Below, piece after piece: positions 3,810 through 61,853 of a stretch of 64,000 nucleotides of DNA. The DNA is taken from NCBI GenBank assembly GCA_965248755.1, contig OZ252149.1, forward strand, positions 4,252,314-4,316,313, read 5' to 3'. The translations under genes and the position numbers were made by a program. The DNA is from Candidatus Latescibacterota bacterium (GTDB lineage Bacteria; Latescibacterota; CBDEFO01). Numbering within the stretch: position 1 is the first letter of the stretch; each line of letters opens with the position of its first letter. The notes under the pieces are model-generated. The model saw nothing but the letters and a program-made list of their open reading frames with translations. It did not search any database and was not told the DNA's origin.

Positions 3810-4021
3810 ATCAGTACCCTTTCATTTGGGTTTATGTGATGACGGAACTAATGGACTTTAAGATACGAACAAGCAGGTCAAAGTCAATTCCTTTTTCACG
3901 GCGAATGACGACCATTATCGAGCGAACTGCGATTATTTGTATAACTTCATAATGCAAAGGATACTATCTGATTAAGATCAATTTCCTTGTCTGTACGGAT
4001 CCATCTGCTTTCGATCCATAC

Positions 4022-4915
4022 TTAGTTGGAGAAAGTTGACTTCATGCGGCCCCAGGTGTCAGCTTCGACCGATGTTGCAGGTACCCAGATGCTGGAATCA
4101 AAGGGGGCCAGGAGATAGTCGACGCAGTTGTCGGCATGATTGTCCAATCTTGTGGCCCCGCTGTTCGTCCAGAAGCCGTTGTAGCCCCCAACTTCGAGAT
4201 CGTCATCGTCCATAACAGCAAAGCCTATTCCGATGATGGCCCCCTCTTCATAGGTATGTATTATGCTATCATCTACACTATTAAAATCTATATCGTCAAA
4301 TCCCATGAAGTATGTCTCCACATTCAGCGTGCCCGGTCCACCAATTACACCAGCAAAGGTCCAGGTAAGGTCGGCATAAGGAGGCAATCCTGCCCATGCG
4401 GCCGCTCCCCAAAACCAGATGGGATTCTCTCTGTTCAGAAAATAGTGATAGTTTTGCGCCTGAGCTGAGTTGTACCTGTCGGGATCCAGATCGAGATCTT
4501 GCATGACCTGGTACTGTCCTCCGCTGTGGTCAGCATCGATGACCCACTCGATCATCTCCCGAATGTCCACCCCTGCGAAGGAAAGAGAGACATCGTCGTA
4601 CCTATCTTCCATTGTATATATCAGGTTAGTCACCGGACTCCATCCTACGATTATCCGTTCGGCAAGGTTAGAGGAGTCCGGATCCCCCAGGCCTCTGACA
4701 GTCTCTATCAGATCGTCATGCGTCACCCAGAACTCTGAGGGAACGTTAGCCCACTCGCTTAGATCGCTGTCTACTTCAATGTTCTGGAACTCATCGGTGC
4801 CAATCGGCACCTGGACAGCAACGAAGTTCCTATCCGACCTCAAATGAGCAGAACCCGTACTTATAGCAAAAAGAACAAATCCCAGGGCTGTAAATATCGC
4901 AAATATTGTCTTCAT
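4022..4915 (-). CDS. secreted hypothetical protein
   Basis: 297 aa; N-terminal signal peptide MKTIFAIFTALGFVLFAISTGSA; acidic, Trp-rich; function not recognisable. Confidence 0.5.
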   Translation of the reverse strand: MKTIFAIFTALGFVLFAISTGSAHLRSDRNFVAVQVPIGTDEFQNIEVDSDLSEWANVPSEFWVTHDDLIETVRGLGDPDSSNLAERIIVGWSPVTNLIYTMEDRYDDVSLSFAGVDIREMIEWVIDADHSGGQYQVMQDLDLDPDRYNSAQAQNYHYFLNRENPIWFWGAAAWAGLPPYADLTWTFAGVIGGPGTLNVETYFMGFDDIDFNSVDDSIIHTYEEGAIIGIGFAVMDDDDLEVGGYNGFWTNSGATRLDNHADNCVDYLLAPFDSSIWVPATSVEADTWGRMKSTFSN

Positions 4916-4953: not shown

Positions 4954-7900
4954 TTATTGTGTCCTTCCGAAGTTATCCAGAAAAAGGACAAAGTCAGAAA
5001 GACCGATCTCTCCATTGCCGTCTAAATCAAATATAGAATTGGCTGAAGTGGTCGTTGTCCCGAACGCATCTAGAAACAGGACAAAGTCGGCAAGGCCTAC
5101 TTCATTGTTCCCATCGAAATCTGCTGCAAGGTCTGGGGGAACAGCAGATATATCAGAGAGATTCAACAACACTGATACATTATCGCTGTTCCAATTAGCC
5201 ACAGCCAGGTCATTTGTCTCATCGCCATCTAAATCTGAAATAAATACGGAATGGGGACCGTCTCCAGCATCAAAGTCCAGCTTATCTTCGAATGTCCCAT
5301 CTCCTTTATTCAAGAATACTGACACATTATCGCTGAAAGAATTAGCGACAACCATGTCATTATCCTCATCACCATCTAAATCCGCGATGAAAACTGAGCG
5401 GGGAAAACTTCCGGCGTCGTAGTCTATCTTAGGTGCAAATGTCCCATCGCCATGGTTCAACAACACAGATGCGTTGTCGTTGAAAAAATTTGCCACAGCT
5501 ATGTCATTATCTCCATCAGCATCTACATCCGAAACGAAAACGGATATGGGACCATTCCCAGTGGGATAGTCCACCTTGTCTGCAAATGTCTCATCTCCAT
5601 TATTCATCAGCACTGATACGTTGTGGCTGGACGTATTAGCTACAGTCAGATCATTATCTCCATCCCCATCGAGATCCGAAGCGAAAATCGAATGAGGACC
5701 AGCGCCAGCGGCGTAGTCGCTCCTATCTGGAAATATTCCATCTCCTTTATTCAGCAACACTGACACACTATTGCTGAGCTGATTTGCCACAGCTAAATCA
5801 TTATCTCCATCGCTATCTATATCCGAACTATAAACCGATATAGGACCATCACCGGCAGCATAATCTATCTTAGGCGCAAATGTGCCATCGCCATTATTCA
5901 ACAGTATTGATACATTGTCGCTGCTGAAATTAGCTACAGCTAAATCGTTATCCCCATCGCCATCTAAATCACCAATGAATACTGATTGAGGAACATCTCC
6001 AGCGGGATAGTCTATCTTGGGCGCAAACTTCCCGTCTCCATCATTAAGTAGCACAGAAACAATATCATTGCTCAGATTAGCTACAGCTAAATCGTTATCC
6101 CCATCGCCATCTAAATCTCCACTGAATACTGATTCCGGTTTTTCCCCGGTGGCGTAGTCAGTCGGAAGTCCGAAAAAGACAAAAGCAAACGCAAATCCAT
6201 TCTCAAGTGTGTCTGCCTTACCGTCAGCATTTGCAACTATCACATCGACAGTACCGACAGGGTGTGCGGGAGGCAGAGCGGTAATTCTATTGCTGGCCAC
6301 TACGACTACATCTATGGCTGCCATATCCCCGAAAGTGACAGTCGCTCCGATCCCGAAATTACTCCCCGTAATCGTCACAAGCGTACCGCCCGATTCTGAG
6401 CCGACACCGGGCCTGATAGATGTCACAACAAGAGGGGGAGGAACAATAAACTCAAAGGCGTTAAAGAGCGTGTCTGTCTGACCGTCTGGATATGTGAGTA
6501 TCACATCCACAGTACCAACAGGATGACCGGGAGTCAGAGCGGTAATTCTATTGCTGGCCACTACGACTACATCTGTGGCTGCCATATCCCCGAAAGTTAC
6601 AGTCGCTCCGATCCGGAAATTACTCCCTGTTATCGTCACGGACGTACCGCCCAATTCTAGGCCGGAAGTGGGACTGATAGATGTTACAACAGGAGGAGGA
6701 GGAACAATAAACTCAAATCCGTTAAAGAGTGTGTCTGTCTGACCGTCGGGATTTGTTACTATCACATCGACAGTACCGAGAGGATGAGCAGGAGTCACAG
6801 CCCTAATAGCAAGGGAGGATAGTACGGCTACGTCTATGCCTGCCATATCCCCGAAAGTAACGGTCGATCCGATCCGGAAAGTACTCCCTGTAATCGTCAC
6901 AGGCGTACCGCCCGATTCTGAGCCGACACCGGGCCTGATAGATGTCACAACAAGAGGTCCAGTAAGGACAAACTCAAAGCCACTAAAGAGCGTATCTGCC
7001 TGACCGTCGGGATTTGTTACTATCACATCCACAATACCGAGAGGATGAGCAGGAGTCTTGGCAGTAATAATACCCAGAAGTCCTACAGCTACATTTGTGG
7101 CTGCCATATCGCCGAAAGTAAGAGTCGCTCCACTCTGGAAATTGCTCCCCGTTATCGTCACAGGCATACCGCCCAATTCCGTGCCAGAGGTAGGACTAAT
7201 AGATGTCACAACTGGAGAAAGCGGCACATTAGACCGATTCAACAACACTGATACACCGTTGAGATGAGCCGTAACCAGGTCATTATCTCCATCCCCATCT
7301 AAATCTGCAATGAAGACTGATATGGAACCATCCCCAGCGGTGTAGTCCACCTTAGGTGCGAATGTACCATCTCCATTATTCAACAACACTGACACATTAG
7401 CGCTTTCCAAATTAGCCACAGCAAGGTCATTATCCCTATCACCATCTAAATCTGCAATGAAGACTGATATGGAACGATCCCCAGCGATGTAGTCCACCTT
7501 AGGTGCAAATGTACCATCTCCATTGTTCAATAGCACTGACACAATACCGGGCCTGCTACTAAAGCCTCTCGCATTAGCCACAGCAAGGTCATTATCTCCA
7601 TCTCCATCTAAATCCGCACTGAATACTGACCTGGGATCTTCCGTTGCGTGATAGTCCACCTTAGGTGCAAATGTACCATCCCCATTATTCATCAACACTG
7701 ATACAGTATTGCCGGGACGTCCACTAGCCACAGTCAAGTCATTATCTCCATCCCCATCTAAATCTGCACTGAAGACTGAATTGGAACCAGACTCAGTGGT
7801 ATAGTCCACTTTGTCTGCAAATGTCCCGTCTCCATTATTGAACAGTACTGATACAGTACCCACCACATTAGCCACAGCCAGATCATTATCCCCATCCCCA

Positions 7901-8634
7901 TCTAAATCAACACTGAAAACTGATTGGGGACTATCCCCAGCGGGATAGTCTACCCTAGGTGCAAATGTTCCATTTCCATTATTCATCAACACTGATATAC
8001 TACCGATGTCAACAAATGAAAATAAAGCAGAATTAGCCACAGCCAGGTCATTATCCCCATCTCCATCTAAATCTGCACTGAATACTGAATTGGGAACACG
8101 CCCAGTGGGATAGTCCACTTTAGGTGCAAATGTACCATCTCCATTATTCATCAAGACTGATACAGTGCTGTCGGGGGTGGGGGTGAAACCCCCGAAACCC
8201 CCATTGGCCACAGCCAGGTCATTATCTCCATCTCCATCTAAATCCACGCTGAATACTGACGAGGGTTTATGCCCAGCGGGATAGCTTGTCGGAAGTCCGA
8301 AAAGGGTAAAAAGAAACTCAAATCCATTCTTAAGTGTGTCTGCCTGACCGTCGGGATTTGTGACTATCACGTCCACAGTGTCAGCAGGATGAGCGGGACT
8401 CACAGCTCCAATAGCGAAGGAGAATTTACGGTTTACATCTGTGGCCGCACGATCTCCGAAAGTGACAGTCACTCCGCTTTGGAAATTGCTCCCTCTTATG
8501 CCCACAGCCGTGCGCACGAATTCCGGTCCGGAACTGGGAGTAATAGATGTAACGACAGGAGGTTCCTGTGCATAGGCAGTCGCATTCAAAGCGTACAGCA
8601 GTGCCAGCGCAGTGTAGAGTATGGTTAATTTCAT
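4954..8634 (-). CDS. giant secreted surface protein: FG-GAP/VCBS repeats + four IPT/TIG domains + C-terminal dockerin-like module
   Basis: 1226 aa; signal peptide MKLTILYTALALLYALNATAYA; more than 15 repeats of the type SVFSADLDGDGDNDLAVAN...SVLLNNGDGTFAPKVDY; four modules VVTSISPTSG...TITGSNF...TFGD...VTNPDGQ (IPT/TIG-like); dockerin-like tail DFDGNNEVGLADFVLFLDAFG...DLDGNGEIGLSDFVLFLDNFG. Confidence 0.85.
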   Translation of the reverse strand: MKLTILYTALALLYALNATAYAQEPPVVTSITPSSGPEFVRTAVGIRGSNFQSGVTVTFGDRAATDVNRKFSFAIGAVSPAHPADTVDVIVTNPDGQADTLKNGFEFLFTLFGLPTSYPAGHKPSSVFSVDLDGDGDNDLAVANGGFGGFTPTPDSTVSVLMNNGDGTFAPKVDYPTGRVPNSVFSADLDGDGDNDLAVANSALFSFVDIGSISVLMNNGNGTFAPRVDYPAGDSPQSVFSVDLDGDGDNDLAVANVVGTVSVLFNNGDGTFADKVDYTTESGSNSVFSADLDGDGDNDLTVASGRPGNTVSVLMNNGDGTFAPKVDYHATEDPRSVFSADLDGDGDNDLAVANARGFSSRPGIVSVLLNNGDGTFAPKVDYIAGDRSISVFIADLDGDRDNDLAVANLESANVSVLLNNGDGTFAPKVDYTAGDGSISVFIADLDGDGDNDLVTAHLNGVSVLLNRSNVPLSPVVTSISPTSGTELGGMPVTITGSNFQSGATLTFGDMAATNVAVGLLGIITAKTPAHPLGIVDVIVTNPDGQADTLFSGFEFVLTGPLVVTSIRPGVGSESGGTPVTITGSTFRIGSTVTFGDMAGIDVAVLSSLAIRAVTPAHPLGTVDVIVTNPDGQTDTLFNGFEFIVPPPPVVTSISPTSGLELGGTSVTITGSNFRIGATVTFGDMAATDVVVVASNRITALTPGHPVGTVDVILTYPDGQTDTLFNAFEFIVPPPLVVTSIRPGVGSESGGTLVTITGSNFGIGATVTFGDMAAIDVVVVASNRITALPPAHPVGTVDVIVANADGKADTLENGFAFAFVFFGLPTDYATGEKPESVFSGDLDGDGDNDLAVANLSNDIVSVLLNDGDGKFAPKIDYPAGDVPQSVFIGDLDGDGDNDLAVANFSSDNVSILLNNGDGTFAPKIDYAAGDGPISVYSSDIDSDGDNDLAVANQLSNSVSVLLNKGDGIFPDRSDYAAGAGPHSIFASDLDGDGDNDLTVANTSSHNVSVLMNNGDETFADKVDYPTGNGPISVFVSDVDADGDNDIAVANFFNDNASVLLNHGDGTFAPKIDYDAGSFPRSVFIADLDGDEDNDMVVANSFSDNVSVFLNKGDGTFEDKLDFDAGDGPHSVFISDLDGDETNDLAVANWNSDNVSVLLNLSDISAVPPDLAADFDGNNEVGLADFVLFLDAFGTTTTSANSIFDLDGNGEIGLSDFVLFLDNFGRTQ

Positions 8635-8688
8635 TTTAGATCCCCCCTCAATTTTTGGTCGATCCGGTATAACTGCTCAGAAGCGGCT

Positions 8689-8880
8689 TCATAGAAAAGA
8701 AATTATAATATATGTAAGCAACGCTAACACCAAAAATCCGATCACGATTCTTATGACGAACGCTCCGATTTTCATCGCTATCCACAGAAGGACAAGGACT
8801 GCTATCGCGGCTATTATGATTTCTACTTGCGTGAGTTCGCCTGTGGAGAATCTTTCGACTATCGTATCGAGAAGCCCCAC
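8689..8880 (-). CDS. small two-helix membrane protein (hypothetical)
   Basis: 63 aa; GTG start preceded by AAGGAGGA about 8 nt upstream; two hydrophobic helices. Confidence 0.4.
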   Translation of the reverse strand: MGLLDTIVERFSTGELTQVEIIIAAIAVLVLLWIAMKIGAFVIRIVIGFLVLALLTYIIISFL

Positions 8881-11245: not shown

Positions 11246-12605
11246 CAAGTAGCAGCATCTCTTCCCGAAAAGAAGTCAGGTTACTTTGTGTTCTTCGCGC
11301 CTTGACGCTATATCCTGTTCAACCTGGCGCGGTAGCAATGCCCACAGCGCCCGTGAGACCTGCATGACTTAGATACGTTTCGGATAACCTCAGTATAACC
11401 GAAAGCCGATCAAAAGCCTCCAGACCTGATGCGTATTGTCCTCTTTGGGCCCTGCTCCCTTTTCAAATCTGCGAGAGAACTTGTACACTTTCCCCTGAAG
11501 ATGGAGGTAAAACCTGTCACCTTCCTTGCGGCGTTTTATGTCGACTCCGATGTAATCTAATCCTTCCTCCATCCTGTCTATGCCCTCGTCTCCCGAAAAA
11601 GGCACAAGTGCCTCAGCCCTTTCACGGTCGTATTCAAAACCCACCCTAATGTCATTCCAGATCTGATAAGTCGTCCTGAAGAAAGCGTCTCTTTCTTCAT
11701 TCCTGAAGCCCTGCTCTTCTGTGCCTCTCCCGACGTGGTGTCCTACAATCCAATCCCTGTAGATATAGGGGAAGTTGCCAGCGACATCCCCGCTGTGCGC
11801 ATACCAGCCGTTCGGCGCCGAGATCCCTCTCCTCAAAAACCTACTTTCGACGACCTGAAATAGCCTTGCTAACTCTATCCTCAGATCCGCCCTTCCGTCC
11901 CTAAATAGGTCTCCAAGGTACGCACCTATCAAATAAGCACTATTGCGGCCCCAAGGTATTACCCTCCTTGCAAACCCCGGGTACCACACATCGTCTCCGG
12001 CTGTTAAACCATAGAGCTTAACGTAATCGTATAGATATACACTCCCCCCCACCTCAGCGATGGCATTGCCTCTTATATCCCCTGCTGTCTGATTAAGAAT
12101 GCTCTCTATGGGGTTCTCCTTAATGACGCCCCCGACGCTTGCTCCTACAGCGATCTTGTTTAGACCGACATTCCCCATATCACATTCATGAGGGATTGTA
12201 TTTCGATACAATCTTGTTTGTGAATGAATATTACCACTTTTACATTTTTCAACAAGTATTTTTTTCAATTAATTATAGTATTTTCCTCTGAATTATCACT
12301 TTCTTTGTGTTTAAATCCTCCAAATCGGAGACACCTCTCCATCGACTCACAAAAAAATGTGGCAGTTTAAACAGAGTAATATCGCAATCGTTCAATCCGG
12401 GATAATATTTCGGTAAATAAGCTCTTGTCTATCCCAACCTCAGCCATCTGAAACGTGATGTATCTGCTGTGCCTGACAAGCTTCGCGCCAATCTTGATCA
12501 ATGTCACGAGGAGGCTGCCAAGAGACCCCGGGATAATATCAGTGTTTGATTCTCCCTGGAAGAACCAACCGCCTTAGCCCGATTAATTCATAAACTTGCT
12601 GGAGT

Positions 12606-12628
12606 TATTGCGAGGAGCAAAGCGGTCC
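12606..12628. repeat. palindromic element copy (TCCCCGATTGAGTCTATCGGGGA)
   Basis: 7-8 bp perfect stem with 7-nt loop; member of a dispersed family (see findings). Confidence 0.8.
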
Positions 12629-12714
12629 CCGATTGAGTCTATCGGGGAAGCAATCTCAAGGTTTTATAGTGGTCTCCTATGAGAGTCGGAGAGTATTACA
12701 TCTACCACAAGTAA

Positions 12715-12738
12715 CCCCCGATTAAATCTATCGGGGGG
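12715..12738. repeat. palindromic element copy (CCCCCGATTAAATCTATCGGGGGG)
   Basis: Same stem and loop architecture, 109 bp from the previous copy in direct orientation. Confidence 0.8.
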
Positions 12739-12933
12739 ATTGCTTCGCCTTCGGCTTGCAATGACACCGAAGGTGGTTAAACGGCATAACTATAATATAA
12801 TACAATCCCTTAATTAATACACGGACTTTTTTTGTGAATTATTCGCCTCAGAAAGTTTCCAAGATTATAGGCCAGAAGAAATAACCAGAGCCTCACCTGA
12901 TCCCTTTCTGAACCCACATAGCATTGATATCTG

Positions 12934-13317
12934 TCAGGTGATATCTGACAGGCTGTTGAGATTTTCCAACTGAGTCAGTATCTCCGTTTCAAAACGTCCT
13001 ATCGTGTTGGCGCTGGCGGCGTGCTTGCCTTTGCCCTTCTTTCCGGTAATCGCTCGCATTACTGGGTCAACTGGTAAAGGATGAGCATTATTCACAGCTT
13101 CATATCCTGCAAGACGACTGTAAATCGATTGACGCATCAGTGTGGGCATATCATGTTGGATATTAAGTCCTCTTCGTAGATCGTTAAAAAGACTAGATAC
13201 TGAGTCGAATAATCCTAAAACGTCATCGAGGTCACGATACGCAAGAAGACCACCATCAGATGTCACCTTGGCACGATCAAATTCAAGCTTAATAGTTCCA
13301 TCAAATCCCATATTCAT
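12934..13317 (-). pseudogene. IS1380-family transposase, N-terminal fragment
   Basis: 127-aa ORF LEFDRAKVTSDGGLLAYRDLDDVLGL...YSRLAGYEAVNNA matches the conserved N-terminus of IS4/IS1380-type DDE transposases; the catalytic core is missing. Confidence 0.6.
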
Positions 13318-14278
13318 CCTTTCACCCTCTGGATGATCAATACTTATCCGCCATTTCCGAGTCTTATTTATTGTAATCTAACATGTTCTGGTGACTTTGA
13401 CAACCGTTTTTCGGGTCTAATATGAGGAATGGTGGTTAGATATGTCCACTGGAGCCTTGCGGTAATAAGGCTTACCTCATCTCCGGTTCGACTTTGAAGA
13501 CCGTCGATAATAGAGGTGCTCCCGGACACTGGACCCAAACTATGTTCTATCTGAATGGACCTAAGAGGAGGAGCGTTGTCTGTCAACACAAAATTTCCAT
13601 GGTAGCCCGGTCCCCACCATTGTCTGCTCTTCCCAAATAAAAAATCGGTCCTCAGAAACCTTACTTTAAGATAGACCTCGTCTAACTTTGCTACGGTTCT
13701 CTCGTCCTTTCCGAAAAGGTAAGGAGATGCAAAAAAGGCAGCATAAGGCGTAATACTTGCTCCTACATCTATTTTGGCCCCGATGCTGCCGCCCTTGGAA
13801 AAGTGATAAGGCTCAATATTATCCACATTTTTAACTGCCGCTCTGGTAGCTCCAAAGAGGGTTAACTCCCCCTTTATGTAAGGGATAAAAAGTTTTTTCC
13901 TTTTTCCCCGCTCTGCCTTTGCTATATCCTCCAATTCGAGTCGAAACTCGTGCTCAAGGTCTAAGACCCATCTTTCTACCTCCAAAGACAATGCCGGCTT
14001 ACTCTTTGACAGTCCATAAACTAAAAGAGCGGCCTCATAACGTCCGATGGGTTTGCTCTCGGACGGAGGACGCTCTAAAAGTCCCTTTGTGTTTAACCTT
14101 TCCAGGATACCGTACGCCCAGTGATGCAGGGGCAAAGCGACAGATGCTCTCCTTTCCTGGAACGGAGTCCACGTTCTACCTTGTGCCCAAACCTTACCGG
14201 CGTTAGCAGTACTGAGGTTCCCAAGCAGTATCGGAGAACTTTTTGGGGAAAAGAGGATTAGGGCAACATACGCACAAC

Positions 14279-16113
14279 TTAAGAACTTCCACTTTGATGA
14301 TTTCTGCAAAACTCCTGAAGTCCCTTCAAAAGTCCCTCTCTGTCTACCCTATCGACGTAGTCGATAATGTTTTGGATCTTCTTGTCCAGCCCATCGATCC
14401 GATTAGAAGACGTGATCCTTAGTATCTTATCGTGCACAGTAGGCTCTACCTTTTCGTCTCCGTTCCAAAGTTCTTCGTGCATCTTTTCTCCGAGCATAAG
14501 TCCTGTGAAGACTATCTGTATATCCTTGTCCACTTCCAGTCCGGAAAGATGTATCATGTCCTTTGCCAGATCCAATATTTTGATCGGGCGTCCCATGTTC
14601 AATATGAATATATCTCCCCTATTTCCTATCGCCGCTGCCTCCAATACCAACTGTGCCGCCTCTGGGATTGTCATAAAGTAGCGGGCTATATCAGGGTGAG
14701 ATACTGTAACGGGGCCTCCTTCTGCTATCTGTTTCCTGAATATAGGGATGACACTTCCGTCGCTGTCCAGGACGTTGCCGAATCTGACTGTGACAAACTT
14801 GGCCCTGCTTTGTCTGCCGAAATCCTGGATGAAGAACTCCGCCAGCTTCTTGGATACACCCATAACTCCCACCGGATTAACTGCCTTGTCTGTTGAGATA
14901 TTAACAAAGGTCTCCACACCGCCTTCCTCTGACAGCTGTGCCGCAGCTATAGTCCCAGCTAAATTGTTCTTTATGGCTTCCTCAGGGTTCAACTCCATCA
15001 AAAGCACGTGCTTATGAGCCGCAGCGTGAAAGACGATCTGTGGCTTGTGTTCGCCTATCATGGCCCTGAACTTTGCCCGGTCGTTAATATCTCCTATTAT
15101 CTGGACAATCTCCGTATCTCTTGCAATCTTTTCAAATTCAATTCCCAAAAAGTGCATATTGTTCTCAGCTTTGTCATAGAGCACAATTTTGAAGGGATTA
15201 TAAGCAGAAGTTGGCGGCATATCTCCGCACCGATAGAGCCCGCTGCTCCGGTTACTAATACAGTTTTATTTGCTATAAACGAGCGTAACTTCTTAGTATC
15301 TAAATTCACCTCCTCTCTACCTAAAAGGTCCTCAACCTTGACGTCCCTGAGTTGATTTATAGGAGATTTTCCATTTACCATCTCGGAGGATGCGGGTGCG
15401 ATCTTGAAATCGATGTTGCATTCTGAGCATATATCTACGATCTCCCTGATCTCTTGTCCACTCGCATCTGGAACCGCCATGATCACTTGCCTGATCTGTC
15501 TGCTTTGAATGATGTTTTTCATCTTCTCCACCCCGCCTAAAATCTCGATTCAGTGAATCCGCATGCCCACATTGGCGCCCGAATTGTCTATGAATCCCTC
15601 GATCTTATACTGCTCCCGATGGTTATTCTCCACCTCCCTGACGATCAGCTCTGCTGTGCTTCCTATGCCGTATATTAGGACAGGTGCGGCAGATCCTCGC
15701 GGTCTCAGCACAGACTCCAAACTCGACCGGAATCTGATAACAAATCTGCTACCCCCGATAAGCAGGATCATAGACATCCAGTCCAGCAAGAAGACACGCC
15801 TTGGGAAGTCCACCGTGCGCAGGACGTATACCAAAGCGATCAGAACTATACTCCCTATCGTAATACTCTTGCATATCTGAACTAAGTCCTCAACACTTGC
15901 ATATTTCCATAGTCTGCGATAGAGATTCGTAACTGAGAATATGCCTATCCTCACTGGGATCGCCAATACCACCATAAGCATCAGGTTATACCTCTGAGCT
16001 TCGGGGAATGAGAAGTTAGAGATCACCCCGAACGATAGGAAAACCGAAATTGCTATAGACAGCAAGTCTGCTACTATCAGGAGGATTTGGTGTCTTTTTA
16101 ATCTTATGTTCAC
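14279..16113 (-). pseudogene. capD: CapD/PglF/WbpM-type UDP-sugar 4,6-dehydratase, disrupted by two frameshifts
   Basis: Three consecutive ORFs (15550..16293, 15097..15531, 14279..15220) together encode an N-terminal membrane domain, a linker with VLVTGAAGSIGAEICRQLL NAD-binding motif, and the epimerase/dehydratase domain; frame changes near 15545 and 15100-15230. Confidence 0.7.
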
Positions 16114-16138
16114 CGATTCGTGTCCCAGAATTTCAGCT

Positions 16139-17263
16139 TCAGAACAAAGCTTTTTTATTCTTACGTATTGCCTCTTTGAGTCTTTTGCACACGTAGTCAA
16201 TCTGTGCCTGGGATATATTTCCGAAGAAAGGCAGCGCCAGGACATATCTTGACGCCTCCTCACAGACTGGAAAATCTCCCACTTTATATCCAAACCTCTC
16301 CCTATAGAAGGGCTGAAGGTGTATAGGAGAAAAATAGGGTCGCGATTCTACACCATCTGCTCTCAAATCCCTCATAATTCCTTCTCTATCAACATTTGTA
16401 CTTAATCTTATTACATACACAAACCAGCTTATCTTCACACCCTTTGCCACATACTGAGTTCCTACTTCCTCTACATCTTTAAGGTTCTGATTGTACTTCT
16501 GTGCCGCCTCATCCCGCTTTGACAGCAATTCATCTATCCTTTCAAGTTGAGCCAGCCCCAGCGCTGAGCTCATCTCATCCAGGCGATAGTTAAATCCGAG
16601 TCTTTCGTGCTCAAGCCAACTTCCATTCTCCGAACGCCCCTGATTTCCCAGACTCCTCAAGAGCCTGGCTAATGCCTCATCATCAGTGACGACAACGCCC
16701 CCTTCTCCCATGGTCATCTGCTTGTTGGGATAGAAAGCAAAGACACCAGCCCTCCCGAAACTCCCCACGAGCTTGTCACCATACTTTGCTCCTGTTGCCT
16801 CACAGGCGTCCTCTACCACCTCCAGACTATGTTCTTGTGACAATTCCATAATAGCATCCATATCGCACGGATGTCCGAAGATGTGAACCGGAAGTATCGC
16901 CTTTGTCCTTTCTGTGATCGCCTCCTCTATCCTGCTTGGATCCATATTCAGAGTCAGAGGATCCACATCTACGAAGACCGGCTTGCCCCTGGCCATAAGG
17001 ATGCAGTTGCTCGAAGCCACGAAGCTGAACGGAGACGTAATCAGCTCATCGCCTGGTCCTATCCCGATTCCTATCAAACAAAGATGCAGTCCACCAGTCC
17101 CACTCGAGGCTCCTACGGCGAACCTGCTCCCTATGTACTCTGCAAACTTACGCTCAAAATCCCTCAGCTTCGGACCCAGAGAAAGCCGCCCCGAGCGGAG
17201 GACTTCATTTACCGATCTGATCTCGAGTTCGCCTATATCGGGCGAGGAAAGGGGCACTTGCAT
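16139..17263 (-). CDS. DegT/DnrJ/EryC1/StrS-family PLP-dependent sugar aminotransferase
   Basis: 374 aa; family-typical layout; directly upstream of capD on the same strand. Confidence 0.85.
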   Translation of the reverse strand: MQVPLSSPDIGELEIRSVNEVLRSGRLSLGPKLRDFERKFAEYIGSRFAVGASSGTGGLHLCLIGIGIGPGDELITSPFSFVASSNCILMARGKPVFVDVDPLTLNMDPSRIEEAITERTKAILPVHIFGHPCDMDAIMELSQEHSLEVVEDACEATGAKYGDKLVGSFGRAGVFAFYPNKQMTMGEGGVVVTDDEALARLLRSLGNQGRSENGSWLEHERLGFNYRLDEMSSALGLAQLERIDELLSKRDEAAQKYNQNLKDVEEVGTQYVAKGVKISWFVYVIRLSTNVDREGIMRDLRADGVESRPYFSPIHLQPFYRERFGYKVGDFPVCEEASRYVLALPFFGNISQAQIDYVCKRLKEAIRKNKKALF

Positions 17264-17322
17264 AGCAAAATATGGGTTGGACTAAACACCTTTACGTCCA
17301 GAGCGATTCTCTGATTGCTCTA

Positions 17323-18468
17323 TCAGATCGCAGATGATTTCAACTTCCGCGCTATAACTATAAGCCCTATTGTCTCCACAAAGATAAGACCCAGACCTAA
17401 CTCTATCGGTAGTTCGACTACAAAGAGCGCGGAAAGACCGAAGAAGAATCCCATCCCAGAGCAGATAAGAACTGTGTGCTCCTGGGAAAATCCCATATCA
17501 ATCAGCTTATCGTAGAAATGGCTTCGATCTCCTGAAAATATCGGCTTTCTGTTTGCTCTCCTTTGCACAACTGCCAGAAGCGTGTCGAAAATCGGCACGG
17601 TCACTACCAGAAGTGGTCCCAGGATCCACCTTAGATCGAATCTCTGCGACGGCAGGAGAAGGATCAGCATAAAGGCGCACATAAATCCCAAAAATAGACT
17701 CCCAGAGTCACCCATAAAGACGTCGGCAGGGTGCCAGTTGAAAAATAAAAATCCCAGGCAGATTCCCAAAAGACATAGGGATATAGCTATACCTATTGGA
17801 GACTCAGCCATGTAAGAAAGTAGCGCGAAGAATCCGAAGGCAATAGCAGACACCCCCCCTGCAAGTCCATCTATCCCATCCAGGAGATTCATAGCGTTGG
17901 AACTCCCCACTACATAGAGCACTACAAGAAGAACTCCCAAAAGTCCCAAAGGGATAACTTTTGTCATTCCGATCAACACAATTACAGCCGTTATCTGTCC
18001 CAAAAGCTTAGCAAAAGGTGAAATTCTCTTCATATCGTCAATAAGTCCTACTATAAAGATAACTCCTGACGACAAAATTGCTGTGATATAAATCACCAGA
18101 AAGTCCGAATTTAAATAATTAAATCGATATGCACCATATCCGACAACCGCAAATGTCAAAAACATAGCGATCCCTCCTGTTCTGGGGATCGGATAAGAGT
18201 GAACGTCCAACCTTCCCGGAGTATATACGATGTTCAATCTCTTTGCTGTCTCCTTTGCCAAAAAAGTTAAAGCTATAGATAGAGCAAGGCAGATCCAAAA
18301 TAGAGCCGCATTGACCTTGATTCCTGTCAACTCAAAGCTGGCCCCGACAAGCAGAGCAGCCCATAGTGGGAGACGAAGAAAACGCCTGGAAGATAAATTT
18401 TCCGTCCTTTGTGTAAGACTTTTGCTCATAACTGTGGAATCCAGACAAGACTGACGAAGATACCGCAA
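17323..18468 (-). CDS. polyprenyl-phosphate sugar-1-phosphate transferase (MraY/WecA/WbpL family)
   Basis: 381 aa, about 10 TM segments; motifs DDMKRISPFAKLLGQ and HPADVFMGDSGSLFLGF. Confidence 0.8.
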   Translation of the reverse strand: MRYLRQSCLDSTVMSKSLTQRTENLSSRRFLRLPLWAALLVGASFELTGIKVNAALFWICLALSIALTFLAKETAKRLNIVYTPGRLDVHSYPIPRTGGIAMFLTFAVVGYGAYRFNYLNSDFLVIYITAILSSGVIFIVGLIDDMKRISPFAKLLGQITAVIVLIGMTKVIPLGLLGVLLVVLYVVGSSNAMNLLDGIDGLAGGVSAIAFGFFALLSYMAESPIGIAISLCLLGICLGFLFFNWHPADVFMGDSGSLFLGFMCAFMLILLLPSQRFDLRWILGPLLVVTVPIFDTLLAVVQRRANRKPIFSGDRSHFYDKLIDMGFSQEHTVLICSGMGFFFGLSALFVVELPIELGLGLIFVETIGLIVIARKLKSSAI

Positions 18469-18504: not shown

Positions 18505-18957
18505 CTACGTCAAAACACAAGCATTATCCACATAAAAAAATGTGGAGAGGGAGGGATGTTTGATTGGCCATGCGATCACTGGCCCGCTGCACCAGAGAGT
18601 TAAGGGTCTGTCGAGATTTTCGGCGATCTCCAAAGGTTCTGGGGCAGAGGGAATCTTGAAGAGTTGGCAATACTCCTTGAGGAGGTCCACAACAATAACA
18701 TCAAGGGCTGTCGCTAATCTTCTCAGTGTCCTAATGGAAAAACTGCTGTCGGATTTCTCCCACTTCGTGATAACAGTCCTGTGAACGCCGACCTTCACCG
18801 CTAACTGATACTGTTTCAGCCCGCGCTCCTTGCGAATGTTTCTGAGGTTTTCTCCTACCGTCAAACTTGTCTTCTTTGCTAACGTATGGCTGTTCTGACA
18901 GGATGTCGGATACGTAAATAAAAAGGTAATGCAGTAGAAAACTTGCACCTGGTACAT
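18505..18957 (-). CDS. XRE-family helix-turn-helix transcriptional regulator
   Basis: HTH segment LRNIRKERGLKQYQLAVKVGVHRTVITKWEKS; start uncertain (ORF track extends to 18993). Confidence 0.6.
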   Translation of the reverse strand: MYQVQVFYCITFLFTYPTSCQNSHTLAKKTSLTVGENLRNIRKERGLKQYQLAVKVGVHRTVITKWEKSDSSFSIRTLRRLATALDVIVVDLLKEYCQLFKIPSAPEPLEIAENLDRPLTLWCSGPVIAWPIKHPSLSTFFYVDNACVLT

Positions 18958-18991
18958 TGACAATTTGTTGATCTGTAGCGATATTTGGGAC

Positions 18992-19776
18992 ATGAAAAAT
19001 TGCCCTCGCTGCAGGGGAAGAAAATTTTGGTTACTGAAGACTGGTCAGTTACGCTGTCGGAGGTGTAAATTGACTAGAAAGTTGACCTCCTCCTCCTGGG
19101 AGAAAACTCGAATGTCTCCGTACTGGAAGGGGAGGTTGGTTGAGTATTTTTGTCTTGGTGTTCCTGTTTACCGGTTGCGATTCCATGTTCCATACACGAG
19201 GAAGACTATGGAGCGCTGGTATCGGATCATTCGAAAGGAAATCTACCACCTCACCTTCAAGGAGCTTGAACTCCTTGAAGGTGAGGTGGAAATGGACGAA
19301 ACTCTCTTTGGTGGTAGAAGGCCTGGTAAGAGGGATTGGGGTGCTTTGGGCAAACAGATGGTCTTTGGGATCTATCAGAGAAAGGGTAAGGTGTTGACGT
19401 TTCCTATCTCGTCAAGGAGTCGTGACTCACTGTTGCCTCTTATTACCCAACACATCAAACCAGGGAGCTTATATTACACTGATGATTGGATAGCCTATGC
19501 CTCCCTTTCTATCAGTGGCAACCACGTGGTAGTGCCGAAAGAGAAGGGAATAGCTAGAGGAAGAGATCACCTTAATGGCGTGGAAGGTTTCTGGTCGTAT
19601 GCCAAACACTGGCTTTACCAGCGATCCCCGATTGATTCTATCGGGGAGGTGTTGACAAAAACTCCTTCCACCTTTACCTTAAGGAGATCGAGTGGTGCTT
19701 CAACCATCGCCACGAAAATCTCCTTCCACTTATAAGAAAGCTACTCGATCAACAAGCTGTCAAAGAGCTAAATTAG
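18992..19776 (+). pseudogene. IS1595-family transposase interrupted by a palindromic element
   Basis: N-terminal zinc ribbon CPRCRG...CRRC and DDE core with HLNGVEGFWSYAKHWLYQ; the family-typical C-terminus (KNSFHLYLKEIEWCFNHRHENLLPLIRKLL) is encoded in a different frame immediately after the palindrome at 19626-19648. Confidence 0.7.
19626..19648. repeat. palindromic element copy (TCCCCGATTGATTCTATCGGGGA) inside the IS1595 transposase gene
   Basis: Same family as 12606; sits exactly at the frame break. Confidence 0.8.
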
Positions 19777-19971
19777 TGCAACTTTAGTTATGCATTACCA
19801 ATAAAAATAACATATTTCTAGCGGCATTGGCAACTATTTTCTTGCACATGTAGAGATAATTTGTCATCTTGTGTGCCCAATATAGATTTTTTATTGCTTT
19901 TAACTCTAAAAAAGCTTATATTTTGACGTTGATTATCATCTGCCGATTTAACCTTAAAAGAGGCGTCCGTA

Positions 19972-25143: not shown

Positions 25144-25287
25144 GTAACACCTAATTTTTCATATCAAAGAGGATTCTGGGTATTTAATCCTTGCGCCATA
25201 AGATGAAAATCGCTATTTTCTGGTGTCGGTCTGCTGATATTAGGAATAATCGTTCAATGTCCACATCAAAAAAGGCGGCATTCGAAG

Positions 25288-30056: not shown

Positions 30057-32622
30057 CTATCCTGTCGTGCCGAAGTTATCCAGAAAGATCACAAAGTCAG
30101 ATAGACCTACTTCTCCATCGCTGTCCAAGTCATACGCAGAATCCCAATCGACTGAACTGGTAGTTGTTCCGAACACATCTAGAAAACGGACAAAATCGGA
30201 GAGACCTACTTCATTATCCCCGTCGAAATCTCCTACAAGGTCAGGGACGACAGTAAAGTCAGAGATATTCAACAACACTGACACACTGTCGCTCCATCTA
30301 TTAGTCACAACAAGGTCATTATTTCCATCTCCATCCAAATCCGCACTAAAAACTGACACGGGACCATTCCCAACACTATAGGCCGCATTAATTTCAAATG
30401 TCCCATTTCCATCATTCAACAACACTGACACATTATCACTGTTCTCATTAGCTACAGCCAAGTCATTATCCCCATCCCCGTCTAAATCCACACTGAAAAT
30501 TGATATAGGACTGTCCCCAACAGCATAGTTCATCTTAGGAGCAAATGTTCCATTTCCATTATTCAACAACACTGATACACTATCGCTGCCAATATTAGCT
30601 GTTGCTAAGTCATTATCTCCATCTCCATCTAAATCTGTACTGAATACTGATGCGGGTTCATTTCCAGCGTCATAGTCTGCCCTAAATGGAAATGCTCCAT
30701 CTCCACTATTCAACAACACCGATACATTTTCGCTAATAAGATTAGCCACAACTAATTCATTATCCCCATCCCCATCTAAATCCACACTGAAAATTGATAT
30801 AGGACCCTCCCCAACAGCATAGTCCACCTTAGGTGCAAATGTGCCATTCCCATTATTCAACAACACTGATACATTATCGCTGTTCCAATTAGCCACAGCC
30901 AAGTCATCATCCCCATCTCCATCTAAATCTGTAATGAATACTGACTCGGGACTACCCCCAACTGCATAGTCAGTCCTGGGTCCGAAAAGGACATCGACAA
31001 AAGCAAATCCGTCAGAGAGTGTGTCTGTCAGACCATTGGGATTTGTAACTATTACGTCTACAGTGCTAATAGGATGAGCGGGAATCACAGCGGTGATCGT
31101 ACTGGAGGATACTATGACTACGTCTGTGGCTGCTCTATCTCCGAAAGTAACAGTTGCTCCACTTTGGAAATCGCGGCCTTTTATCGTCACAGATGTACCA
31201 CCCAATTTCGTGCCGAAAATAGGATCAATAGATGTCACAATAGGGGGAACCCCAATAAAAGCAAATCCATTAGACAGTGTGCCAGCCTGACCGTCGGGAT
31301 TTGTGACTGTCACATCCACAATGCCAACGGGATGAGCGGGAGTTGTTGCGGTAATGGTACCCCAAAGTCCTACAGCTACATTTGTGGCATCGCTCTCGCC
31401 GAAAATAACAGTCGCTCCACTTTGGAAATTGCTCCCTGTTATCGTCACAGACGTACCCTCTAATTCCAGGCCAGAAGTGGGATTGATAGAGGTTACAGCC
31501 AGAGAAGGTATCACATCGGAGAGATTCAACAACACTGATACATTATCGCTACCCAAATTAGCCACAGCCAAGTCGTTATCACCATCTCCATCTAAATCCA
31601 CACTGAATACTGATTCGGGACGACTCCCAGCGGCATAGTCTACCTTAGGTGCAAATGGTCCCATTCCCATTATTCAATAACACTGATACATTATCGCTGA
31701 GGAAATTAGCCACAGCTAAGTCGTTATCTTCATCACCATCTAAATCTGCAATGAATACTGAATAGGCATGATCCCCAGCGGGATAGTCCACCTTAGTTAC
31801 AAATGTCCCATTCCCATTATTCAATAACACTGATACAGTACCGTCGAATACAGAATTAGCCACAGCCAAGTCATTATCCCCATCTCCATCTAAATCTGCA
31901 ATGAATACTGAAGAGGGACCAAGCCCGGCGTTATAGTCTGTCTTAGGTGCAAATGTCCCATCTCCTTTGTTCAACAACACTGATACATTATAGCTGTTCC
32001 TGTTAGCCACAGCCATGTCATTATCCCCGTCTCCATCTAAATCTGCGATGAAAACTGAAACGGGATTATCCCCAACAATCAAGTCTACCTTAGGTACAAA
32101 TGTTCCGTTCCCATTGTTCAATAATACTGAAACGCTATCGCTCCCTGCATTAGCCACAGCGAGGTCATTATCTCCATCCCCATCTAAATCTGCAATGAAT
32201 ACTGAACGGGGGAAAACCCCAGTGCCATAATCCACCTTATGCCCAAATGTTCCATCCCCATTATTTAACAACACTGATACAGTACCTGGGGGGATGTTAT
32301 TAGCCACAGCTAAGTCATTATCCCCATCTCCATCTAAATCCGCACTGAATACTGAACGGGGATATTCCGTAACACCATAGTCCACCTTAGGTGCAAATGT
32401 ACCATCGCCATTATTCAACAACACTGATACAGTACCTGGGGAGATGCTATTAGCCACAGCTAAGTCATTATCCCCATCTCCATCTAAATCCGCACTGAAT
32501 ACTGAACGGGGTTTATCCCCAGTGGCATAGGAAGTCGGAGGCCCCAAAAGGGCTTGTGCATAGACAGGCGCATACAAAGCGACTAACAGGATCAAAGCAG
32601 TATATAAGATTGCACACCTCAT
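30057..32622 (-). CDS. secreted FG-GAP/VCBS + IPT/TIG + dockerin-like surface protein, second paralogue, with apparent 1-nt frameshift near 31650
   Basis: ORFs 31645..32622 (signal peptide MRCAILYTALILLVALYAPVYAQA plus FG-GAP repeats) and 30057..31670 (FG-GAP, three IPT/TIG, dockerin-like tail) overlap; the frame break lies inside a conserved NNGNGTFAPK repeat. Confidence 0.7.
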
Positions 32623-58019: not shown

Positions 58020-59365
58020 GGGTCTGTCAGTTTTTTTGTGTAAATGGGATTTTCTTCTGTACCCTTTTCGGCTTATTCTATACCAAATCTCCCCTCGAAG
58101 TGGATGGAGAATTGGTGAATGGCCAAGCTCCAGTTCCTGATCGGCATCGTCCATTTTTTCTTGATATTCTTGAGTGTCATATAGAGTAACTTAATCGCTG
58201 TCTCGTCGTTTGGGAAGCTATTTCTGTTCTTTATTACTTTCCGTAGAGAGTTATTAAGCGATTCGATGGCGTTTGTGGTATAGATCACCCTTCGGATCTC
58301 TTCAGAGTAGGCGAAAAACGGGATGATCCGAGACCAGTTATTCTGCCACGATTTACTTATCATCGGATAACGGCTGTCCCAAGCCTCCTGAAAATCTCCA
58401 AGGGCCTCTTCAGCCTGTTCTACCGTGGGGGCTCGGTATATATTCTTGAGGTCGGCGGCAATCTTCTTACGATCCCTATACGACACGAACTTCAAGGAAT
58501 TCCTCACCACATGGACAATACAGAGCTGGACCTCTGCTTGGGGAAATACGGATTCAATAGCCTCTGGAAGACCCTGGAGACCATCCACGCAAGCTATCAA
58601 CACATCGTTCATCCCCCGATTCTTAAGCTCCGTGAAAACTTGCAGCCAGAACTTCGCCCCCTCGCTCTTTGCAATCCAGATACCCAAAACGTCTTTCATC
58701 CCATCCAGACCGACCCCTACCGCAAGATACACCGCCTTGTTTACGATCCGGCCTTCGTCTCTAATCTTCATCACCAGAGAATCAAAGAATACTATGGGAT
58801 ACACCCCTTCCAAAGGACGATCCTGCCACTGCTTCACCTCTGATATGATCCCATCGGTCACAGTCGATATCAAATCAGGGGCACCTCTACACCGTATATC
58901 TCCTCCAAATGAGCCTGTATATCACGTGTGGTCATCCCTCGGGCATACATAGACAGTATCTTATCATCAAAACCTGTAAATCGCCTCTGCCCCTTCCTCA
59001 CTATCTGCGGATCAAACTGACTGTTCCGATCCCGTGGCACCGATATCTCCAGATCACCATAATCTGTCTTCAATCCCTTTGTGCTCCTACCGTTGCGCGA
59101 ATTACCGCTGTTCCTCCCTTCTGGAGAACTCTTATCGTAGCCTAACTCATACGTAAGCTCTGACTCCAGAGCCCGCTCAAGAATCGCCTTCGTCAACTGC
59201 TTCAAAAGACCTTCCTAACCAATTATGTCTTCCGGCTTCTTGTAATCCTTCAAAAGCTCATCAATCAACTTCGGGTCTAGCTTGTCCATGTAAGAACTCC
59301 TTATGTAAATGGTGGACAACTAATATAACTCATTTCCCCATTTACACAAATTTCCTTACACACCC
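58020..59365 (-). mobile_element. IS256-family insertion sequence, copy 1 (inactivated), flanked by 8-bp TSD TCTATATC
   Basis: Termini GGGTCTGTCAGTTTTTTTGTGTAAATGGG / CCCCATTTACACAAATTTCCTTACACACCC form imperfect IRs; identical 8-mers at 58012-58019 and 59366-59373. Confidence 0.85.
58073..59319 (-). pseudogene. IS256-family transposase, inactivated (1-nt deletion plus nonsense codon)
   Basis: Split into ORFs 58073..58873 and 58870..59205; relative to copy 2 lacks one A near 58878 and has GAG to TAG near 59203; also a Q to R substitution. Confidence 0.85.
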
Positions 59366-59366
59366 T

Positions 59367-60374
59367 CTATATCTCCCCTTCAATCTCCTTTCTCATTAAA
59401 GAGCAGAAACTGATCGCCCTCTTCAGACATCCCTCAGCCTTCTTTTGATCTACCTTGTTCTCTTTCTCAAGCATGTCCCTCTTTTGGGGCAACCATACAT
59501 TTTCCAGATAGTCCATCTGCTCGTTCAGATTCGGGTCGTCCGCGCAGCTTATGAAGTAGTCGATGATCCCCAACAGTCCAAATTTCAAGCTTACAGAATA
59601 TGATTTCGTCTCCTCATCCAAATCTAGGCAGATGTTTTTGCTTCTGTTCTGCCGTGCCGTTGCCAGTTTCCCGGCAGAAACGGTCAAAAGTGTATTTACA
59701 AAACTGTCCTTGTTCTGTACCCAGTCCGCCAGCCCCTCTACGTAGTCCAGAAGGTCCACCTTTTCGCCTCTAGAGATAACCGAGTAGGCTCGTATCTGCA
59801 CGTTTCTGAAGAACGCCACGAGTCCAATGTTGGCGTCTATAGTGTCAGCATCGTACAGTATCCTCTTCTCCAGGGAGGAATATTCTCTCTCCACATCGCT
59901 TGGGCTTAATCTACTGGACTTGAGGTGGCCTACGATAATATCTGCTATCTTCTGACAGAACGTTTCGGGGAAATTCCTCATCCTTAATATCTCTTCTGAG
60001 ATGAAAGCACCAGATACATTATGTATTTCTCCGAACAGATTGTACTTCTCGTATAGTTGAGTTACAATATTGTTTCCTGTGGGCAGCAGAGAATCGTTCA
60101 GCCAGAAACCATGCTCATTTAGAAGCCTGTTTCCGTTTTCATCCATGCTAACAGGACCGTCGTATCTTTTTGTAATATCGTGGAGCGTAGCTGCATATTT
60201 CAACTGATCTATGTCTCCACCTTCATCTTCACCCAAGGATACGCTCAGGTTCCTTACTCTCATCGTATGATTGAAGTAATAGTGTCTCCACAAAAAGCCC
60301 ACCCGCTTTTCGTCCCACAGATTGAAAGTGGACCCTACAAGATCTTCTAACTCCTTCAATCTATTGTCTTCCAT
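59367..60374 (-). CDS. HD-domain phosphohydrolase-like protein
   Basis: 335 aa; H...HD motif region HYYFNHTMRV...AATLHDITK and later LYDADTIDANIG; stop codon lies inside the right TSD of IS256 copy 1. Confidence 0.65.
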   Translation of the reverse strand: MEDNRLKELEDLVGSTFNLWDEKRVGFLWRHYYFNHTMRVRNLSVSLGEDEGGDIDQLKYAATLHDITKRYDGPVSMDENGNRLLNEHGFWLNDSLLPTGNNIVTQLYEKYNLFGEIHNVSGAFISEEILRMRNFPETFCQKIADIIVGHLKSSRLSPSDVEREYSSLEKRILYDADTIDANIGLVAFFRNVQIRAYSVISRGEKVDLLDYVEGLADWVQNKDSFVNTLLTVSAGKLATARQNRSKNICLDLDEETKSYSVSLKFGLLGIIDYFISCADDPNLNEQMDYLENVWLPQKRDMLEKENKVDQKKAEGCLKRAISFCSLMRKEIEGEI

Positions 60375-60860
60375 TCTTTTCTCCTGAAAGTATAGAACAA
60401 AGAGTCTAAAGTTGCCTTTCTTCTCCCCGTTTCAAAAGATATTCCTGAATATACGGAAAAGTTCCCAAGGCTGCAACAAGGGTTTCCCGCATCTAGAAGA
60501 ATAAAGATACATGGTATCCACCCACACGGGACGCTCTTGCCTGTTGGGCGTAATCAGATGTTGACTGTGGAAGGTTACCTCTTGCCGTGAGAAGATCTCC
60601 AACAAGATGGTGCGGATGGGCTTCTTGGCGTTAGACCACTATGGAGTGGATCATCCCATGGATAGGGTCAGGTAGTTCCTATTGAGCCATCGCACACCAA
60701 ACAGAGATATTCGAAGGCTTTGCCCTGGAATTTCCTGTCACCACCTATGTCTAAGACCAAAGGAGTATTCCACTTGGCTGTTTTCCTCAGTTTTGCGCGA
60801 GGGACTTGACAAGATCTCACAAATTTGCTATCTTTACAACGATTAGGGGTAAGATCTTGC

Positions 60861-60938
60861 GCGCCCATGGCTCAATTTGGATAGAGCATCTGACTACGGA
60901 TCAGAAGGTTGGGGGTTCGAGTCCCTCTGGGCGTGCCA
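60861..60938 (+). tRNA. tRNA-Arg (anticodon ACG)
   Basis: Cloverleaf folded by hand: acceptor GCGCCCA/TGGGCGT, D-stem GCTC/GAGC, anticodon stem TCTGA/TCAGA with loop CTACGGA, T-stem GGGGG/CCCTC with loop TTCGAGT, discriminator G, encoded CCA. Confidence 0.8.
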
Positions 60939-60943
60939 GAAAA

Positions 60944-60981: not shown

Positions 60982-60985
60982 CGTT

Positions 60986-61852: not shown

Positions 61853-61853
61853 G

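Follow-up and report, generated by a model that had tools for sequence, protein, structure and literature searches.

A Wzi-family gene of a Latescibacterota bacterium and the shortened IS1380-family element that lies within it

In Escherichia coli K30, Wzi (2YNK; PF14052) is an outer-membrane lectin that holds the group 1 capsule at the cell surface. Insertion sequences (IS) of the IS1380 family, as described in ISfinder and in reviews, have ends that begin with CC, duplicate 4-5 bp of their target and are 1.55-2.0 kb long. Here, a Wzi-like gene and the IS1380-type element found within it were analysed in a 64,000-nucleotide stretch (the window) of a Candidatus Latescibacterota bacterium genome (GCA_965248755.1, contig OZ252149.1, forward-strand positions 4,252,314 to 4,316,313). 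Two open reading frames (ORFs), 13368..14309 and 11390..12268, had been taken in an initial annotation for the halves of one gene, and they are indeed the halves of a single Wzi-family barrel gene lying on the minus strand at positions 11390-14309. With high confidence, the whole is an insertion pseudogene, that is, one Wzi-type gene split by a non-autonomous, shortened IS1380 derivative (mini-IS1380). The insertion itself is an ordinary IS pseudogene, mapped at base level and unsurprising. The two parts of the gene are as follows:

13441..14309, minus strand: 5' portion of the Wzi-like gene, comprising codons 1-289 and 2 nt more (PF14052 positions 30-116, alignment to the distant homologue P0002, AlphaFold model)
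11390..12164, minus strand: 3' portion of the Wzi-like gene, comprising 1 nt, codons 291-547 and the stop codon (PF14052 positions 227-337, alignment to P0002)

The 5' part encodes a signal-peptide-like N-terminus, the helical bundle and barrel strands 1-8, and the 3' part encodes strands 9-18 and the C-terminus ..GFRLY, whose last residue (Tyr) is the C-terminal aromatic residue that had been pointed out before. Against the Pfam family PF14052 (Caps_assemb_Wzi; curated cut-off of 30.1 bits), ORF 14309..13368(-) matched profile positions 30-116 (E 1e-12, 48.2 bits), while ORF 12268..11390(-) matched positions 227-337 with 29.1 bits (E 6.5e-7), narrowly missing the cut-off. Once the halves were joined, the resulting 547-aa protein scored 75.3 bits (E 6e-21), above the cut-off. 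Moreover, excising positions 12165-13440, which comprise the element and one copy of the TTAGA repeat flanking it, gave an in-frame ORF of 1,644 nt and 547 codons with zero internal stops, the in-silico empty site reading ..GCGATCTTGTTTAGATATGTCCACTGG... The last 23 codons of the ORF containing the 5' half (13437..13371) are target-duplication and IS sequence and not part of the gene, and the first 35 codons of the ORF containing the 3' half (12268..12165) are IS-derived read-through. The N-terminal ORF is deposited as protein P0001. For annotation, the two deposited fragments become one pseudogene, and the ORF ends reading into the IS are to be discarded.

With the rejoined protein as the query, HMMER was run exhaustively against 1.84 billion representative proteins and yielded intact homologues. 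Protein P0130 (476 aa) aligned with query residues 62-545 at 38% identity (E 1e-87) in a single stretch spanning residue 289/290, where the element is inserted, and P0131 (497 aa), P0133 (509 aa) and P0135 (493 aa) were likewise unbroken across this point. In the multiple alignment, the junction between QWTYL and NKIAVGASVG was gap-free against EWSYFRRLAIQGSLG and its equivalents, so uninterrupted homologues of the joined halves do exist as intact single genes (38-39% identity). In particular, P0130 and P0131 are each called as one gene on their own contig. The distant homologue P0002 (581 aa) aligned collinearly, with residues 58-284 matching the 5' half and residues 377-511 the 3' half, and a word-index protein search with the rejoined protein returned distant homologues only (26-30% identity). 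Because the homologues are single genes aligned over the junction and excision restores the frame exactly, the two ORFs are one gene and not two.

The AlphaFold model of the rejoined protein (57 sequences; pLDDT 86.3, pTM 0.85) showed predicted helices at residues 64-133 followed by 18 strands, the insertion point falling at the end of strand 8. Its top PDB match in Foldseek was E. coli Wzi 2YNK (E 6.9e-17, TM 0.59/0.72), and AlgE, the OprD family and other 18-strand barrels ranked lower. From this predicted fold and the family match, the protein very probably is, or was, a Wzi-type outer-membrane barrel. Like E. coli Wzi, it passes the family hidden Markov model, carries the WWGPGY motif common to the two proteins and has a predicted helical bundle plus an 18-strand barrel. 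Unlike E. coli Wzi, to which it is 16% identical in the structural alignment with 2YNK, the Latescibacterota protein is about 100 residues longer, and the neighbours of its gene in the window are not wza-wzb-wzc but genes for a CapD/PglF-like dehydratase, a DegT aminotransferase and an initiating transferase of glycosyltransferase family 4 (GT4). The distant homologue P0002, unlike the window gene, does adjoin Poly_export (Wza-like) and Wzz/GNVR genes.

The inserted element was delimited with two related copies. L002 is a European Nucleotide Archive metagenome contig reached by a protein search with the 127-aa N-terminus of the transposase, the same sequence being present in CBDEFO010000006.1 (a Latescibacterota metagenome-assembled genome, MAG), and L003 is GCA_000402435.1. 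The features of the element are listed below:

12165..13435, minus strand: mini-IS1380 insertion, 1,271 bp inserted, oriented parallel to the gene (L002 and L003 alignments)
13416..13435, minus strand: left inverted repeat CCACCATTCCTCATATTAGA, matching the right repeat at 15/20 positions, starting with CC and kept in L002 and L003
12165..12184, plus strand: right inverted repeat CCGACATTCCCCATATCACA, read inward and likewise kept in L002 and L003
13436..13440, no strand: target duplication TTAGA at the left end of the IS (read from the sequence, boundary from the L002 alignment)
12160..12164, no strand: target duplication TTAGA at the right end of the IS (read from the sequence)
12934..13317, minus strand: N-terminal remnant of the transposase, 127 aa (PF13701 positions 4-113 of 435, 82.4 bits; NCBIfam IS1380)
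12844..12904, minus strand: C-terminal remnant of the transposase, containing ..VRLWLFLLAYNLGNF.. and 97% identical to window positions 61846-61906
12367..12577, minus strand: C-terminal remnant of the transposase, with ORF 12507..12367 and its stop at 12367-12369, 87% identical to window positions 62095-61899
12902..12940, minus strand: internal deletion junction, where about 680 bp including the catalytic core are missing by blastn against L003 (L003 4378-5060)

The separation of the two ORFs by about 1 kb of IS1380-derived sequence, as first described, holds for the identity of the element (PF13701) but not for its extent, which is 12165-13435 (1,271 bp) and differs from the gap between the ORFs. 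Both ends and the target duplication could be placed exactly (12165/13435, TTAGA), the two TTAGA copies being identical and forming a perfect 5-bp duplication. Of the inserted DNA, 1,005 bp derive from the IS, including 8 bp that a nested insertion has duplicated, and the remaining 266 bp are that nested insertion. Read straight from the sequence, the inverted ends are CCACCATTCC.. and CCGACATTCC.., and the left end of the element is CAAAGTCACCAGAACATGTTAGATTAC. The transposase starts about 120 bp inward of the left end, and its first 127 codons and about its last 80 codons are retained. With a PF13701 cut-off of 34.7 bits, ORF 12507..12367 reached 30.4 bits (profile positions 394-434), and the N-terminal remnant scored 68.8 bits against NF033539, under the full-length cut-off of 180 bits. 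A 14-nt tandem duplication (12925-12952, repeat D17), which is not found in L002, lies beside the deletion junction. Like the IS1380 family (IS1380, ISEcp1), the element has transposase remnants matching PF13701 and NCBIfam IS1380, ends initiated by CC and a 5-bp duplication; unlike it, the element has lost the catalytic core and is a deletion derivative present at at least two loci. Being about 1.0 kb without the nested insert, it falls short of an autonomous element with a full transposase (1.55-2.0 kb) and is a non-autonomous IS1380 derivative rather than an IS proper. As an internally deleted derivative with intact ends and a perfect duplication, it is useful for IS catalogues.

The idea that the 127-aa N-terminal remnant is a selected regulator, which arose from the uniformly short length of the 120 best-scoring of its 334 hits, was considered and rejected, as its ratio of nonsynonymous to synonymous substitution rates (dN/dS) was about 0.6 against the L002 copy and the three inspected loci were mixed. 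Given this weak constraint, we do not think that the retained N-terminal ORF has a function, and it is regarded as an incidental remnant.

After removal of the nested insert, the window element aligned with L002 3883-4844 by blastn at 91% identity over 998 aligned columns, ending exactly at 13435 and 12165. The L002 copy shares the same deletion junction and lies at a different locus, between AIPR and PhyH genes. A near-full-length relative was found at L003 3889-5510 (about 80% identical to the ends of the window element), and window positions 61846-62095 hold a third fragment of the IS1380 element. Furthermore, a 27-mer of the left end had its sole match, in a collection that does not contain the window genome, in the Latescibacterota MAG holding L002. 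As two independent deletions with identical endpoints are very unlikely, the deletion most likely predates at least one of the two insertions, and the element would have arrived already shortened. Because it lacks the catalytic core, we infer that it was mobilised in trans by the transposase of a full-length copy elsewhere.

The alternative that a full-length IS1380 inserted and then decayed in place, by an internal deletion and a later small insertion, is unlikely, even though the transposase core is missing, the N-terminal remnant is weakly constrained (dN/dS about 0.6) and additional small indels accompany the 14-nt tandem duplication. L002 carries the same deletion junction at 91% identity in another locus and another MAG, and the window element keeps both ends and the 5-bp duplication intact, as a trans-mobilisable element would. 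Thus, of the decayed, internally deleted IS that had been described, the deletion is real (about 680 bp relative to L003) but its occurrence in place is made unlikely by the shared junction of L002.

Other IS1380 sequences were also encountered. Within a pyruvate dehydrogenase E1 gene of L004, positions 3918-4478 hold 561 bp from the left end of a related IS1380, flanked by a 5-bp duplication (TTTAC) and containing the inverted end and the first 160 codons, which reach as far as the first catalytic Asp. This piece suggests transposition with an internal surrogate right end, under a loose choice of the second end. It recalls the one-ended transposition of ISEcp1, a process known with downstream surrogate ends and not with internal ones. 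Moreover, when the 127 N-terminal amino acids of the IS1380 transposase were used as the query, the best 120 of 334 hits were all short (103-223 aa), several of them lying well inside long contigs; in assemblies, intact copies of this IS lineage seem far rarer than truncated or frameshifted ones.

As for the history of the gene that the preferred reading implies, the ancestral state would have been a 547-aa Wzi-family outer-membrane protein with a signal peptide, a helical bundle and an 18-strand barrel. An IS1380-family element, made mobile by a transposase presumably supplied from a full-length copy elsewhere, would then have entered after codon 289, at the predicted end of strand 8 and parallel to the gene, duplicating TTAGA. 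The product would at present be at most a 313-aa fragment with the signal peptide, the helical bundle and eight of the 18 strands, while the C-terminal part would be left without a signal peptide. Since eight of 18 strands cannot close a barrel, the Wzi-like gene is inactive, a pseudogene whose loss of function we infer.

Upstream of the Wzi-like gene and on the same strand, the genes of the CapD/PglF-like dehydratase, the DegT aminotransferase and the GT4 initiating transferase were found, the first of which is also damaged:

14279-16293, minus strand: CapD/PglF-like dehydratase gene in three ORFs, with an in-frame TGA at 15550-15552 and a 1-nt deletion near 15205

The frameshift falls between ..CRQLL and AYNPFKIVLYD... 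A gene for a Wzx flippase and several for glycosyltransferases are found at a distance of 26-40 kb. Among named sequences, Ffh has its nearest homologues (67-68% identity) in Latescibacteria/Latescibacterota MAGs. Three close relatives (L006, L008 and L009), reached via the linked Ffh gene, were 93-97% identical and syntenic to the window up to position 11649 and again from 17803. At about 7173-8691 of these relatives, an IS of about 1.5 kb (DUF772 plus DDE_Tnp_1) replaces the 6.15 kb of window positions 11650-17802. The block absent from them comprises most of the Wzi-like gene, the CapD and DegT genes and the 3' part of the GT4 gene, and the remnant of the Wzi-like gene consists of its last 84 codons only (P0136, 93% identity). 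Since that deletion leaves just 84 codons of the Wzi-like gene, the window genome is an earlier stage of the same locus loss, of which the relatives are the end stage. This Latescibacterota lineage is losing a small surface-sugar module (Wzi-like, CapD-like, DegT and GT4) through IS activity.

Reversible IS insertion is exemplified by IS492 in Pseudoalteromonas and IS1301 in meningococcal siaA. A reversible switch of this kind, in which precise excision would make the attachment of a surface polysaccharide phase-variable, is very unlikely here. The perfect duplication and the absence of further stops or frameshifts in the two halves mean that precise excision would restore the gene, and comparable behaviour is familiar from capsule and exopolysaccharide genes elsewhere. 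However, the element cannot supply a transposase, separate lesions have broken the adjacent CapD-like gene and the relatives have deleted the block outright, so the decay is read as one-way. The locus resembles IS-disrupted capsule and surface-polysaccharide genes elsewhere in that the gene is inactivated by an IS that inserted cleanly and duplicated its target, and it differs from them in showing no sign of reversibility or of selection for switching, the locus being progressively lost.

A mis-assembly is equally improbable, as is a variant of a minority of the population that became fixed in the MAG consensus. The source is a single contig of MAG type, repeated IS copies are often mis-assembled, and the names of related contigs suggest low coverage (4.53x and 5.33x), but a false join would not leave the inverted ends complete, the 5-bp duplication perfect and the reading frame exactly restorable. 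Finally, the possibility that the ORFs are separate genes (one for a periplasmic helical protein, one for a small barrel) flanking a mobile element can be given almost no weight, for although both ORFs could begin at start codons of their own and the N-terminal one is deposited as P0001, the start of one ORF and the end of the other lie within IS or duplicated sequence, excision restores the frame exactly, the homologues are single genes aligned over the junction and the model is one 18-strand barrel cut after strand 8.

Several points weigh against the reading of a single Wzi-type gene inactivated by an incoming, already shortened element in a decaying surface-sugar operon. An intact orthologue in close relatives, sought via the linked Ffh gene, was not found, those relatives having deleted the gene, and the closest intact homologues are only 38-39% identical. 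A target duplication around the L002 copy could not be recognised, leaving its own transposition unproven, and there is no full-length IS1380 copy within the 64-kb window. The CapD/PglF-like gene is a second pseudogene of the operon unless its 1-nt frameshift is a sequencing error, which it could be. As the source genome is a metagenome-derived contig of 4.54 Mb, the insertion could represent part of the population only. A capsule-anchoring or lectin role would be a prediction from family membership and fold alone, and no Poly_export or Wzz/GNVR domains, as of Wza and Wzc, were present in any long ORF of the window. A literature search returned nothing specific to this case. The initial annotation had suggested that the loss of the protein may affect the display of surface glycans; with the CapD gene broken, the block deleted in relatives and no wza or wzc in the window, such an effect is weaker than stated, and because of the other lesions at the locus the phenotypic effect of this single insertion may be nil.

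The insertion nested in mini-IS1380 contains two copies of a short hairpin, positioned as follows:

12578..12843, no strand: nested insertion resembling a miniature inverted-repeat transposable element (MITE), 266 bp, with imperfect terminal inverted repeats ATTAATTCATAAA / TTTGTGAATTATT and empty sites elsewhere
12626..12648, no strand: 23-nt hairpin unit, copy 1, TCCCCGATTGAGTCTATCGGGGA
12715..12737, no strand: 23-nt hairpin unit, copy 2, CCCCCGATTAAATCTATCGGGGG

A separate MITE-like element with two 23-nt hairpins thus sits inside mini-IS1380 with its own 8-bp duplication, CGCCTTAG (12570-12577) and CGCCTCAG (12844-12851), which differ by one mismatch. The two hairpins that had been attributed to the IS are present in two copies, as described, but belong to this nested insertion. 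Its terminal inverted repeats are about 13 nt long (inverted repeat I9). Three other copies of the IS (the window fragment 61846-62095, L002 and L003) represent empty sites, with the counterparts of positions 12577 and 12844 directly adjacent to each other. Because the insertion interrupts the conserved ..LAYNLGNF.. stretch of the transposase, it is the derived state. It folds far better than shuffled controls (DNA fold z-score of -3.35). Like MITEs, the 266-bp insert is short, non-coding and highly structured and is bounded by terminal inverted repeats and by a duplication of 8 bp; a parent IS with matching ends, however, was not found in the window. Neither the window nor the fetched loci contained a second full copy, the hairpin module alone recurring by blastn. 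The IS1595-type element of the window was rejected as a parent, as its ends (GGTAATGCA..) differ, and a resemblance of TCACAAAAAAA to an IS256-like end was dismissed as a low-complexity chance match. In Rfam, no family corresponded to the nested insert or to the metagenome hairpin elements described below, and a match to NsiR1 (E 0.54) was noise.

An inverted motif pair, ATTGCGAGGAGC..GAAGCAATC / GATTGCTTCG..GCAATGAC, was also observed at 12604-12656 and 12738-12768 of the nested insert, with hairpin 1 lying within its left arm. The same motif occurs as an extra module in two of the metagenome repeats (L023 and L036).

The hairpin sequence CCCCGATTnAnTCTATCGGGG starts at 12627 and 12716, and a total of six such sites were found in the window against 0.02 expected by chance. 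The 23-nt palindromic units of this family (TCCCCGATTGAnTCTATCGGGGA) occur at window positions 12626, 12715, 19625, 24076, 34077 and 61820, at L006 14113-14155 and in L010-L040. Stem position 5 shows the compensatory variants G-C, T-A and A-T, and nested copies, a hairpin within a hairpin, were found at window 61806-61850 and L006 14113-14155. In the latter case, the hairpins account for an in-frame difference of 18 nt in a PMT_2 glycosyltransferase gene, the window being 18 nt shorter, in genomes otherwise about 94% identical. Near-identical hairpins were present in 31 contigs of Joint Genome Institute (JGI) metagenomes with a G+C content of 39-61%, mostly as a module in a different repeat of about 200-250 bp, and in one copy of that repeat another short sequence replaces the hairpin. 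Furthermore, the transposase gene of the IS1595-family element is broken by a 23-nt hairpin at 19625-19647, and taking out these positions restores the frame and extends the Pfam match from 2-130 to 2-153 of 153. The settings of the hairpin thus include transposase genes, MITEs, other hairpin copies and at least one protein-coding gene.

The 23-nt palindrome could tentatively be a very small insertion unit whose transfer or copying takes place in trans, although this is doubtful; neither an enzyme nor a target rule or duplication could be assigned to it. Alternatively, its occurrence may reflect gene conversion, repair from a template or selection for a hairpin that binds a protein. A GTAG head is typical of the repetitive extragenic palindromes (REPs) tied to REP-associated tyrosine transposases (RAYTs). 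The 23-nt hairpin is dispersed in the genome as REP-like palindromes are; unlike REPs, it has no GTAG head and sits inside genes and mobile elements, not just in intergenic positions. This unit is the sole odd element of the locus and might repay further work.

The IS1595-family element itself measures 875 bp (18925-19799), has inverted ends GGTAATGCA.., is flanked by a perfect 8-bp duplication, AATAAAAA (18917-18924 and 19800-19807), and is not present in the relatives. The metagenome repeat of about 200-250 bp (L010-L040, e.g. L019 6196-6400) has the conserved ends CCCAAAAATAG..TTTTTGGGGAAAC.. and ..GTAAAATAGCGAGGTTTTCAATCGCTATTTTACGG, shows a covarying pairing (CCTGC/GCAGG vs. CTGGC/GCCAG) and carries interchangeable modules, including the hairpin, with no Rfam match.

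A cluster of IS debris was found at 58073-63564, near a tRNA-Arg gene (60861-60938). Positions 62317-63564 of this cluster encode a complete transposase of IS256/Mutator type and positions 58073-58873 a truncated transposase of this type, and the cluster also includes the IS1380 fragment 61846-62095, directly beside nested hairpins. In L007 (6527-9029) and in L008 and L009 (15338-17839), genes for a DndB-like protein and a D12-class methyltransferase and a 179-aa ORF follow the PMT_2 gene; this block is missing from the window (about 25229-25282) and from L006, making it a strain-variable, defence-like islet. Lastly, window positions 4954-8634 and 30057-32622 encode very large FG-GAP/TIG repeat proteins in highly repetitive DNA, the two genes being paralogous to each other and to genes of the relatives.

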